NCBI GenBank assembly: GCA_951406725.2
Contig: OX597817.1
Coordinates: forward strand, 49,786,001-49,850,000
Direction: 5' to 3'
Source of the DNA: Octopus vulgaris
Taxonomy: Eukaryota
DNA length: 64,000 bases
Part shown: piece by piece, positions 45,000 to 60,864 of the stretch
How positions within the stretch are numbered: position 1 is the stretch's first letter
Layout of the letters: each line of letters begins with the position of its first letter
The notes under the pieces: model-generated
What the model was told of the DNA's origin: nothing
Seen by the model: only the letters and a program-made list of their open reading frames with translations
Database searches by the model: none
Program-made: the position numbers and the translations under genes

Positions 45000-45175
45000 A
45001 TTCAAGTATTTTTAATTATATCGATCTTTAACTAAATTCACAAACCGGAAGAGGGATTCGTATCGTAGCATGTTTACGTTTTTCGTCTCCGACACGTAAC
45101 AATGGATCGGGCTTTGTTTTGTTGTATTTTAGTGTTTATATCTTAATTTATTGTTAATTAGCTTTAAGAATCATC
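45000..45175 (+). promoter_or_regulatory. Putative promoter/5' UTR of the GEX1-like gene
   Basis: Non-repetitive, CpG-retaining segment just upstream of the ATG. It contains an ETS-type ACCGGAAG at 45044-45051 and a short upstream ORF at 45102-45146. The TSS cannot be determined. Confidence 0.4.
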
Positions 45176-46063
45176 ATGTTTAATCTATATTTAATATTCA
45201 ACTGCCTTATATTGGTCCGCTGTTCTACTATCTTTGATAATGTCGATATATACCGTTTTAAAGAAGGCGAGCAGCATTATAATCTTCTCAATCAACGAAG
45301 TGCCCTCCCTGATTATGGTCGGTGTTGGACTAACACCATTGATTCGATTATTACCGGTTGTAAGAAAGTTACCGATAAGATCCAGACACGTCTATCACTT
45401 TTATACCTGAATTGTTTCCTCGAAGGGCAAAAACGCATGTATTACCCGTGTCCACCTGACCATCCCATCGATGTATGCACGCAGAACATGACCGAAGGGG
45501 ATCGAGCGAGCCTGGCCACTTTTTTCATTCATACTCAAAACATTTGTTATTTTCTGGAAATTAAATATTGGAACCAACACACGGAAAGGACGATCCGAAA
45601 ATTATCCGATACGTCTGAAGATATCGCTACCCAGTTAGAGCAATCGTTTAAACTCCAGAATGATATGGTAAAGAAACAGATCGAAACCGTAATCAATCAA
45701 AAAGAAATATTGGACCAGACAATCAATTTAAATGGGACAATATTTTCCACTTCTTCCAACATAGCTGAGACACTTCTGGAATTCCAACGTATAACGTTTG
45801 AACAGACCATTTCCACTAAAGATATCTTCTCACGGGTGGCCAAACTCAACAATGTATTTATCGAAGTAATATCCGATATTTATTCTGTCGTTTTCTACTT
45901 GTTCGTGTTTTTACTCTGTTATTTATCAACCTCCACGCCAAGAACTGCCAAAGCTCGGTTATCCTTGTTTGTCGTAATAATTTTTAATTTTGCCTCAGAA
46001 AAGCTTATGATTTATTACAAAAATTTACCCAACTCCGAAGGCATCATAAATGAAATCAATTTC
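45176..46063 (+). CDS. Exon 1 (codons 1-296) of a GEX1/Kar5/Brambleberry-family nuclear membrane fusion protein (471 aa in total)
   Basis: Non-repetitive ORF with a hydrophobic signal peptide (MFNLYLIFNCLILVRCS). It has a Cys-rich domain CW-x10-C-x17-C(NC)-x11-C-x8-C-x22-C (C50, C62, C80, C92, C101, C124) matching the GEX1/Kar5/Bmb CRD pattern, then a heptad-like lumenal region, TM1 (~235-251), a TSTPRTAKAR loop and TM2 (~262-281). Donor TTC|GTAAGT at 46063/46064, phase 0. Confidence 0.9.
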
Positions 46064-54790: not shown

Positions 54791-54956
54791 AATGAAATCT
54801 ATGAATTGCAATGGACCTATCGCAAAATCTACTGCCTTGTTGGTTTGTGCCTTTTCATACATTCGGTTTGGAGTTACACGGATGTGAACCAAGAGAATTA
54901 TAATATTTTAAATGAAATCAAATCTGAACTCGCAACTTTAAAAAAGTATTCGAAGA
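54791..54956 (+). CDS. Exon 2 of the GEX1/Brambleberry-like gene (TM3 and post-TM helix)
   Basis: Polypyrimidine tract and TTTAG acceptor at 54790. Reads NEIYELQWTYRKIYCLVGLCLFIHSVWSYTDVNQENYNILNEIKSELATLKKYSK in frame with exon 1. The Y-x-D-x4-N-x3-L after TM3 resembles GEX1-type proteins. Donor A|GTAAGT at 54957, phase 1. Confidence 0.87.
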
Positions 54957-56686: not shown

Positions 56687-56902
56687 GATCTGGTTATGAG
56701 AGTGATGGTGAAGAAAGTTCCCACAGTACTACATCAGTAAACAGTGATACCACATATGTTCCCAGTTCACTCTCACAAAGTACATCTAGTCGCTCGAGTT
56801 TGGCATCACTCCTTGATGAACTGAATGAATTAAAAGAGGATGAACTTCATTATAGCAATCTCCAGCGTAGTCAATCTTTCCATGCCTGTCCTGTTAGAAC
56901 TT
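56687..56902 (+). CDS. Exon 3 of the GEX1/Brambleberry-like gene (Ser/acidic tail)
   Basis: TTTTTCAG acceptor at 56686. 216 bp open in phase 1: (R)SGYESDGEESSHSTTSVNSDTTYVPSS...HACPVRT. Donor T|GTAAGT at 56903. Confidence 0.8.
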
Positions 56903-59852: not shown

Positions 59853-59896
59853 GCCCACCTTTACAGAGACATTTCTCAGATATTTCACCACGTCAG
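59853..59896 (+). CDS. Exon 4 (44 bp) of the GEX1/Brambleberry-like gene
   Basis: Strong acceptor TTTTCTTTTCAG at 59852. Phase 1 to 0: (C)PPLQRHFSDISPRQ. Donor CAG|GTATGT at 59897. Confidence 0.72.
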
Positions 59897-60762: not shown

Positions 60763-60864
60763 AAATGCAATTACAATTTGCGACCACGGAACAGTCTAAA
60801 TGCAGTTAATCACAGAGAAATGAAAGAAATTCCAGAATTTTCTAGAAACGAGAAACAAATATAA
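60763..60864 (+). CDS. Terminal coding exon 5 of the GEX1/Brambleberry-like gene (contains YNLRPR)
   Basis: Acceptor TTTCTTTTCAG at 60762. Phase 0: KCNYNLRPRNSLNAVNHREMKEIPEFSRNEKQI then TAA at 60862-60864. Total CDS 1416 bp, a multiple of 3. Confidence 0.75.
   Translation, partial: KCNYNLRPRNSLNAVNHREMKEIPEFSRNEKQI

Follow-up and report, generated by a model that had tools for sequence, protein, structure and literature searches.

The tail of a GEX1-type protein encoded in Octopus vulgaris carries a short linear motif, YNLRPR, which on comparative grounds is real and deeply conserved and which probably serves as an anchor on the H2A–H2B acidic patch; through this contact, which we have modelled, it would keep the protein on the inner nuclear membrane. 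The gene lies in a 64,000-nucleotide stretch of contig OX597817.1 (the window), and its best reading from sequence is a GEX1-type member, with three transmembrane (TM) segments, of the GEX1/Kar5/Brambleberry nuclear-envelope family. An initial annotation of the window had noticed the hexamer and proposed that it ties the nuclear envelope to nucleosomes, gated by a CDK site; conservation, predicted topology and modelled patch docking all speak for the tie, and the gate fell away because its site is not conserved in position.

A five-exon GEX1-type gene in octopus

Five exons with AG/GT boundaries join into a 471-aa open reading frame (ORF; Table 1), and translation and exon structure agree with the initial annotation that the hexamer forms residues 442–447, in the last exon. 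The motif had been described as the end of the protein; 24 further residues follow it. The joined model is identical to the annotated O. vulgaris protein CAI9720974.1 (P0001; UniRef name 'brambleberry-like'), and the O. sinensis product XP_029635340.2 differs from it at five positions, none of them in exons 4 and 5. Exons 4 and 5 are joined in the same way in the O. vulgaris, O. sinensis and Argonauta gene models, with Argonauta exon 4 likewise ending at 59896, and full-length ORFs carrying the motif are present on Logan contigs of 2.3–2.8 kb (P0007, P0008) that look like spliced transcripts. The exon 4–5 junction is thus supported by gene models and homologous sequences. Both O. bimaculoides models run on past the exon 4 donor and do not contain the motif, and read-through of this donor in the window, from 59897 onward, would yield the same short motif-less C terminus.

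Table 1 Features of the octopus gene, in window positions
Feature	Position	Strand	Content
Exon 1	45176–46063	+	aa 1–296: hydrophobic N terminus (putative signal peptide), six-Cys domain, long helices/coiled coil, TM1 and TM2
Exon 2	54791–54956	+	aa 297–352: TM3 and juxtamembrane helix, pattern D-x4-N-x2-L
Exon 3	56687–56902	+	Ser-rich disordered linker of the tail; low pLDDT; about 10% identity among homologues
Exon 4	59853–59896	+	ends in S435-P-R-Q
Exon 5, coding part	60763–60864	+	aa 439–471 and stop; identical to P0001
Y442-N-L-R445-P-R447	60772–60789	+	conserved short linear motif; candidate H2A–H2B acidic-patch anchor with R445 as anchor arginine

Motif-less C termini are annotated both in octopus, by exon 4 read-through, and in a wrasse, through another last exon (P0003, P0013 and P0116), which may reflect either alternative splicing with loss of the motif or faulty annotation. 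A further O. vulgaris isoform model (P0012) leaves exon 5 at a weak donor, 60804–60805, five residues past the motif, and its last exon was not found within the 64-kb window. Upstream, an ORF of 14 codons at 45102–45146 (+) lies out of frame and ends 30 bases 5′ of the start codon. Among ORFs of at least 110 aa, positions 1–45000 of the window contain no other host gene, only microsatellites and element-like fragments that we take to be mariner and LINE elements.

The predicted protein opens with a hydrophobic helix at residues 2–17 (Kyte–Doolittle 1.64–1.68), a putative signal peptide recognized from hydropathy and the AlphaFold model. Six cysteines follow (C50, 62, 80, 92, 101 and 124), all kept in 93/94 homologues and spaced 11-17-11-8-22, against 11-19-12-8-22 in Arabidopsis GEX1 as counted by eye on a published alignment. 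The AlphaFold model places long helices at 107–180 and 194–251 after the Cys domain, which supply the coiled coil of the family, and three hydrophobic segments at about 233–251, 262–280 and 308–325 supply its C-terminal TMs. The best 17-residue stretch of TM3 scores 1.64 in octopus and at least 1.6 in 81/104 sequences (median 2.0). Three TMs and a tail facing the cytoplasm or nucleoplasm had been claimed from the start, and the predicted topology concurs: a basic loop 1, an acidic loop 2 and N-glycosylation sequons at 104 and 186 only all fit a lumenal N terminus and an extralumenal tail. The modelled tail is disordered past about residue 352 except for a short helix at 390–400; the motif region has pLDDT below 50, and the hydrophobic-x-Leu-Arg core within this disordered stretch is Y442-x-L444-R445. 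Across homologues, 68–233 residues separate TM3 from the motif. Outside the tail, a 95-row alignment shows at least 90% conservation at E275 (in TM2) and at R307 (before TM3), a possible intramembrane ion pair.

Profile and structure searches added little to this assignment. None of the 95 family members matches the Pfam Tht1 model (PF04163) at E ≤ 0.01, which we read as limited reach of the model rather than as a missing family feature, because the model is fungal-based and UniRef names for members are 'brambleberry-like' and 'GAMETE EXPRESSED 1'. Pfam searches with the exons, 16 proteins and the 95 members gave nothing at the curated cut-off, Foldseek gave no match at E ≤ 0.001, and sequence searches of the PDB gave weak coiled-coil and TM noise with a profile and no match with exon 5. 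Neighbours in the ESM atlas include Tht1 and 'brambleberry' clusters with scores of 0.85–0.89, which serve as leads. Nuclear-envelope location and a requirement in nuclear fusion are described for yeast, plant and zebrafish members (PMC4291462, PMC4003239), and we infer from family membership that the octopus protein may act in pronuclear or karyomere fusion (for background, see PMC4003239, PMC7179931, PMC9324357 and PMC6263441).

Within the family, the octopus protein resembles plant GEX1 (Arabidopsis At5g55490, rice and maize) in its putative signal peptide, near-identical six-Cys spacing, coiled coil, three TMs, similar helix after TM3 (D-x4-N-x2-L) and Y-N-[LF]-R-x-R near the C terminus. 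The plant proteins differ in being larger (593–639 aa), in carrying the motif at their extreme C terminus or close to it, and in having a demonstrated role in nuclear fusion, which for the octopus gene is presumed. Zebrafish Brambleberry (Bmb) and yeast Kar5/Tht1 likewise have a Cys-rich domain, a coiled coil and C-terminal TMs (PMC10609895, PMC4291462); however, Kar5 and Bmb are described with two TMs, against three in octopus (PMC10609895). For zebrafish Bmb, PMC10120013 gives a size of about 64 kDa and a terminus resembling PTS1. The fish family members in our set are all named 'uncharacterized' and measure 466–511 aa when complete, the wrasse members (480–511 aa) ending just after the motif, and the 18 proteins obtained with a profile search aimed at named Brambleberry proteins included no zebrafish-type named orthologue. 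Compared with Bmb as published descriptions portray it, the octopus gene may be a GEX1-type paralogue rather than a Brambleberry orthologue, and these same descriptions would place a second, GEX1-type gene beside Brambleberry in animals. The original assignment to GEX1/Kar5/Brambleberry therefore stands for architecture, six cysteines and TMs, and is doubtful as regards orthology to zebrafish Brambleberry.

The motif is conserved from animals to plants

To follow the motif through the family, we used phmmer, which found 593 relatives; the best 150 of the 593 were seen. A set of 159 proteins yielded 112 with TM3 and a tail of at least 60 residues, the other 47 being fragments or without an aligned TM3, and removal of nine close cephalopod and mussel entries, query included, left 103 tails. 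Y-x-L-R occurs in 89/112 tails against 2.8 in shuffled sequences, YNLR in 75/112 against a shuffled mean of 0.16, Y-x-L-R-x-R in 71/112 against 0.19, and the exact word YNLRPR in 15/112 against 0.0; this background ignores relatedness, although carriers of the motif occur in every part of the tree. After close relatives were removed, Y-x-L-R remained in 82/103 tails, and an unbiased count over every gapped four-residue pattern ranked YNLR first (70/103). Identity to octopus is 70.1% in the motif, where the aligner itself favours lining up the motif, against 7.7% and 8.3% in the ten-residue flanks and 33.2% in the Cys domain. The phmmer query included the tail, yet most best-matching stretches stop near residue 350. 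In a leave-one-out count anchored on the other four positions, Tyr (54/55), Leu (54/54) and the anchor Arg (54/54) are nearly invariant, and Asn (54/65) and the last Arg (54/70) are looser. The residue after the anchor Arg is most often Ser (20/82 motifs), and the median local net charge around the motif is +3. The 21/103 tails without Y-x-L-R include several that are short or look truncated or alternatively spliced, and three with near-matches.

Sampling of the taxonomic range covered animals and the published angiosperm GEX1 tails. Species were looked up for 20 proteins, 19 of them chosen for having the motif, and 14 returned a species name. Motif carriers include the sponge Sycon, Notodromas, Anabrus, Amphibalanus, Artemia, Orchesella, Lingula, Branchiostoma and Ciona and, among vertebrates, two sharks, a bichir and a herring. 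In three wrasse proteins the C terminus is YSLRSR; a further five fish models, which look partial or differently spliced, have no tail motif. A protein of the lizard Phrynocephalus (P0062, in the same clade as P0100 and P0149) is a family member without the motif as annotated, and a 2014 paper notes no mammalian orthologue (PMC4291462). In plants, all three GEX1 tails shown in Supplementary Fig. 5 of PMC7586128 carry it: YNLRPR in rice, YNFRPR, terminal, in Arabidopsis and YNLRAR in maize. The gex1-1 allele, which lacks the cytoplasmic domain, is reported to fail in polar-nuclear fusion (PMC7586128). The motif is thus common to plants and animals and, since the gex1-1 lesion removes the tail, falls within a region whose importance was known before. 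The initial annotation had suggested looking in molluscs and other invertebrates for a motif kept while its flanks diverge, and this pattern extends far beyond molluscs, into plant GEX1.

Modelled docking on the H2A–H2B acidic patch

The positions fixed in GEX1-type tails, Tyr, Leu and the anchor Arg, are the three patch-contacting positions of foamy virus Gag and RNF169. R540 of Gag inserts into the H2A E61/D90/E92 pocket; Y537 and L539 lie packed against H2A Y57/A60 and H2B V41/V45, and Y537 also bonds H2B Q44 and H2A E56 (PMC9040877). Y537Q is reported to lower binding about fivefold and R540Q to abolish it nearly completely (PMC12125541). Y697, L699 and R700 of RNF169 matter likewise for binding (PMC5426901).

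We modelled octopus residues 428–462 with invertebrate H2A/H2B cores (locus L034) using ESMFold2, a tool that here did not use family alignments. The complex scored 0.78, against 0.00 for the best of three controls. The mark applied to this score is reached by 51/78 solved and 2/108 mismatched pairs, and among eukaryotes by 39/65 and 2/126, in a calibration without peptides. Runs agree in at least 45% of contacts, with partner pLDDT of 47–50, and from the 35 residues offered the confident interface took only 440–445 and 447. Modelled R445 contacts H2A 61 and 92 and H2B 104/105/108, L444 contacts H2A 60/61/64 and H2B 47, and Y442 contacts H2A 56/57/60 and H2B 46/47. Y442, L444 and R445 are thus predicted to sit in the acidic patch in the register of Gag, in a model of H2A–H2B that does not tell free dimers from nucleosomes. 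The pass may be memory of solved complexes, and we take it as likeness rather than binding because similar peptide–nucleosome complexes have already been solved.

Several known systems frame this result. Prototype foamy virus Gag (PDB 5MLU) shares with the octopus tail the identical hexamer and, in the model, matching Y537/L539/R540 contacts; unlike it, Gag is a soluble viral protein that reaches H3 through downstream residues not shared. With homology seen over six residues only, we take convergence as the default explanation of the likeness between Gag and GEX1. LRM2 of RNF169/RNF168 (Y697-x-L699-R700-S701) and KSHV LANA (L8-R9-S10) use the same pocket (PMC5426901), but RNF169 and LANA are soluble chromatin readers, and RNF169 specificity needs ubiquitin binding. 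As a separate observation on histones, near-canonical H2A and H2B genes with acidic-patch residues intact lie next to each other on a 912-kb IMG/VR contig (L001:1862–3062), beside a P-loop ATPase gene; this giant-virus pair was passed over for the complex model in favour of the invertebrate histones.

Residues 104–109 of LAP1 (TOR1AIP1) also fit Y-x-L-R-x-R. Its 39-residue region 98–136 binds mononucleosomes and DNA and targets an ER protein to the envelope, and S108E/T124E weakens this chromatin-binding region (PMC7773337). LAP1 thereby offers what the octopus reading calls for: a short extralumenal region of an inner-membrane protein with nucleosome binding and envelope retention. It differs in being unrelated to the octopus protein, and the passages of PMC7773337 at hand do not mention use of the acidic patch.

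Alternative explanations for the conserved motif

Binding to a different nuclear partner, such as an import receptor, DNA directly or a free H2A–H2B or chaperone complex, is unlikely. Some yeast inner-membrane proteins are imported by means of a long disordered linker and a basic signal, and the 68–233-residue linker and the local charge of the family's tails resemble such an arrangement; the LAP1 region, moreover, binds DNA as well as mononucleosomes (PMC7773337). However, the core has few Lys, unlike a classical nuclear localization signal, and no P-Y, its Tyr and Leu are as fixed as its Arg, and the model picked the acidic patch and only motif residues.

It is improbable that the motif is instead an Arg-based (RXR) signal, recognized by COPI, that retains the protein in the ER and nuclear envelope or retrieves it there with no chromatin contact, although such a signal has been proposed in print for the same residues and was missing from the initial annotation. 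The authors of PMC7586128 read the Arg residues of the plant GEX1 tail as a possible RXR signal, and C-terminal GFP fusions of Arabidopsis GEX1 were seen at the plasma membrane (PMC7586128). L-R-x-R is present in 65/103 tails. The di-Arg consensus is hydrophobic-R-x-R in a cytosolic tail, which octopus L444-R-P-R447 fits. RXR signals are not known to need a Tyr, and ER retention leaves the fixed Tyr and the Asn unexplained; the second Arg that RXR requires is the least fixed core position and is missing in 17/82 motifs. A generic di-Arg occurs in 90/112 tails against 62.6 in shuffled sequences; retention would therefore not depend on this particular word.

That the tail is lumenal, after an even number of passes, and that the motif binds a lumenal partner we regard as very improbable. 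In its favour, the literature gives Kar5 and Bmb two TMs (PMC10609895), octopus TM3 is only moderately hydrophobic and the conserved R307 precedes it; against this stand the stronger TM3 of most homologues, the loop charges, the clustering of S/T-P sites near the motif, and plant GEX1, which has three TMs and a tail called cytoplasmic (PMC10609895, PMC7586128). Scarcely credible is a chance six-residue match without function, or an unused exon 5: the O. bimaculoides models do omit this exon, but the excess of YNLR over shuffled tails and the plant copies already largely refute this reading, and the motif-bearing ORFs on Logan contigs argue that exon 5 is used.

A probable chromatin anchor for nuclear-envelope fusion

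In the anchor reading, which we consider probable, the lumenal six-Cys domain and coiled coil would act in membrane coupling and fusion, by analogy with yeast and plant members, and the C-terminal tail is predicted to face the cytoplasm or nucleoplasm. A disordered linker of about 70–230 residues, apparent in the sequences, would present Y-N-L-R-x-R to the acidic patch of nucleosomes, where the model puts Arg445 in the H2A E61/E92 pocket and Tyr442 and Leu444 on H2A E56/Y57/A60 and H2B Q46/V47, as with Gag Y537/L539/R540 and RNF169 Y697/L699/R700. Capture by nucleosomes would then probably keep the protein in the inner nuclear membrane and in membrane apposed to chromatin, so that the fusion machinery stands at the site where inner membranes have to merge. 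Kar5 is described on both nuclear membranes, is needed after outer-membrane fusion, acts in inner-membrane fusion and is proposed to be anchored by Mps3 (PMC4291462). In three-TM members, a nucleosome anchor could take over such Mps3-type anchoring.

Several observations count against the anchor: 21/103 tails are without Y-x-L-R, lizard P0062 and both O. bimaculoides models do not show it as annotated, and in yeast Kar5 two TMs suffice for nuclear fusion in a protein that has no tail of this kind (PMC4291462, PMC10609895). In addition, the L-R-x-R part can be read as a di-Arg ER signal, C-terminal GFP fusions of Arabidopsis GEX1 reached the plasma membrane (PMC7586128), the conserved R307 would be on the lumenal side of TM3, and no family member matched Pfam Tht1.

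A nucleosome-binding function of GEX1-type tails is apparently undescribed, and we offer it as a candidate function. Our literature search, conducted outside subscription journals and bioRxiv supplements, gave no link of the acidic patch with a nuclear-envelope membrane protein or with TOR1AIP1. Among the matches listed for GEX1 and nucleosome, no paper concerns such a link by title or abstract start, and the listed papers holding YNLRPR deal, by title, with foamy Gag, retroviral p12 or nucleosome structure. The available passages of the cotton and maize GEX1 papers (PMC13763932, PMC12205866) mention no chromatin link.

PMC4291462 calls it unknown by what route Kar5/GEX1 proteins arrive at the inner nuclear membrane and by what means they fuse it. 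A wider proposal, which we put forward tentatively, is that plant and animal GEX1-type karyogamy proteins have kept since their common ancestor an acidic-patch anchor identical to that of Gag, that envelope fusion depends on direct nucleosome contact, and that the animal gene, separate from Brambleberry and unstudied, persists in sharks, bony fish and at least one lizard. If true, a membrane protein would join the known acidic-patch binders, karyogamy would be tied to chromatin state, and envelope fusion could wait until sperm chromatin is histone-packed and open. A single conserved motif lends itself to a point-mutation test in an existing assay, the rescue of Arabidopsis gex1-1. GEX1 alleles induce haploids in maize and cotton (PMC12205866, PMC13763932), and tail-motif alleles could serve as a tunable breeding tool. 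The finding also points to an uncharacterized GEX1-type gene in animals.

Other sequence elements near the motif

Consensus patterns for tyrosine sorting (YxxPhi), the D-box (RxxL) and CDK phosphorylation (S/T-P-x-K/R) were compared with the tails. YxxPhi is ruled out by Arg at +3, and the D-box was rejected because Arg precedes Tyr in only 34/82 motifs and is absent in octopus. The CDK-like site claimed six residues upstream is S435, seven residues before Y442; S435-P-R-Q has no K/R at +3 and is a minimal S-P site only, replaced by L-P in O. bimaculoides. A conserved CDK gate was rejected on position, and what remains is mild upstream enrichment: S/T-P lies within 15 residues upstream of the motif in 47/82 tails, compared with 24.7% of windows elsewhere in the tails, and the full S/T-P-x-K/R in 15/82 against 8.4% of background windows. 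Phospho-regulation is plausible on this pattern.

Vertebrate members (P0064, P0065, P0077, P0153 and P0179–P0181) share V-Y-[SN]-[VI]-[LM]-V just upstream of the motif. The ends of 25/103 homologues read hydrophobic-S-S-D/E-D/E, for example FFSSDEE (carriers include P0022, P0023, P0032, P0048 and P0138), and are absent from the octopus protein; we presume a resemblance to the CK2-phosphorylated FFAT (VAP-binding) motif, making this end FFAT-like or an acidic decoy for the basic motif. About 15–30 residues past the motif, 42/82 tails carry an N-P-hydrophobic ... E-[ST]-x3-F element, of which the octopus tail has only a degenerate copy and which might add to the nucleosome contact or fold into a short helix.
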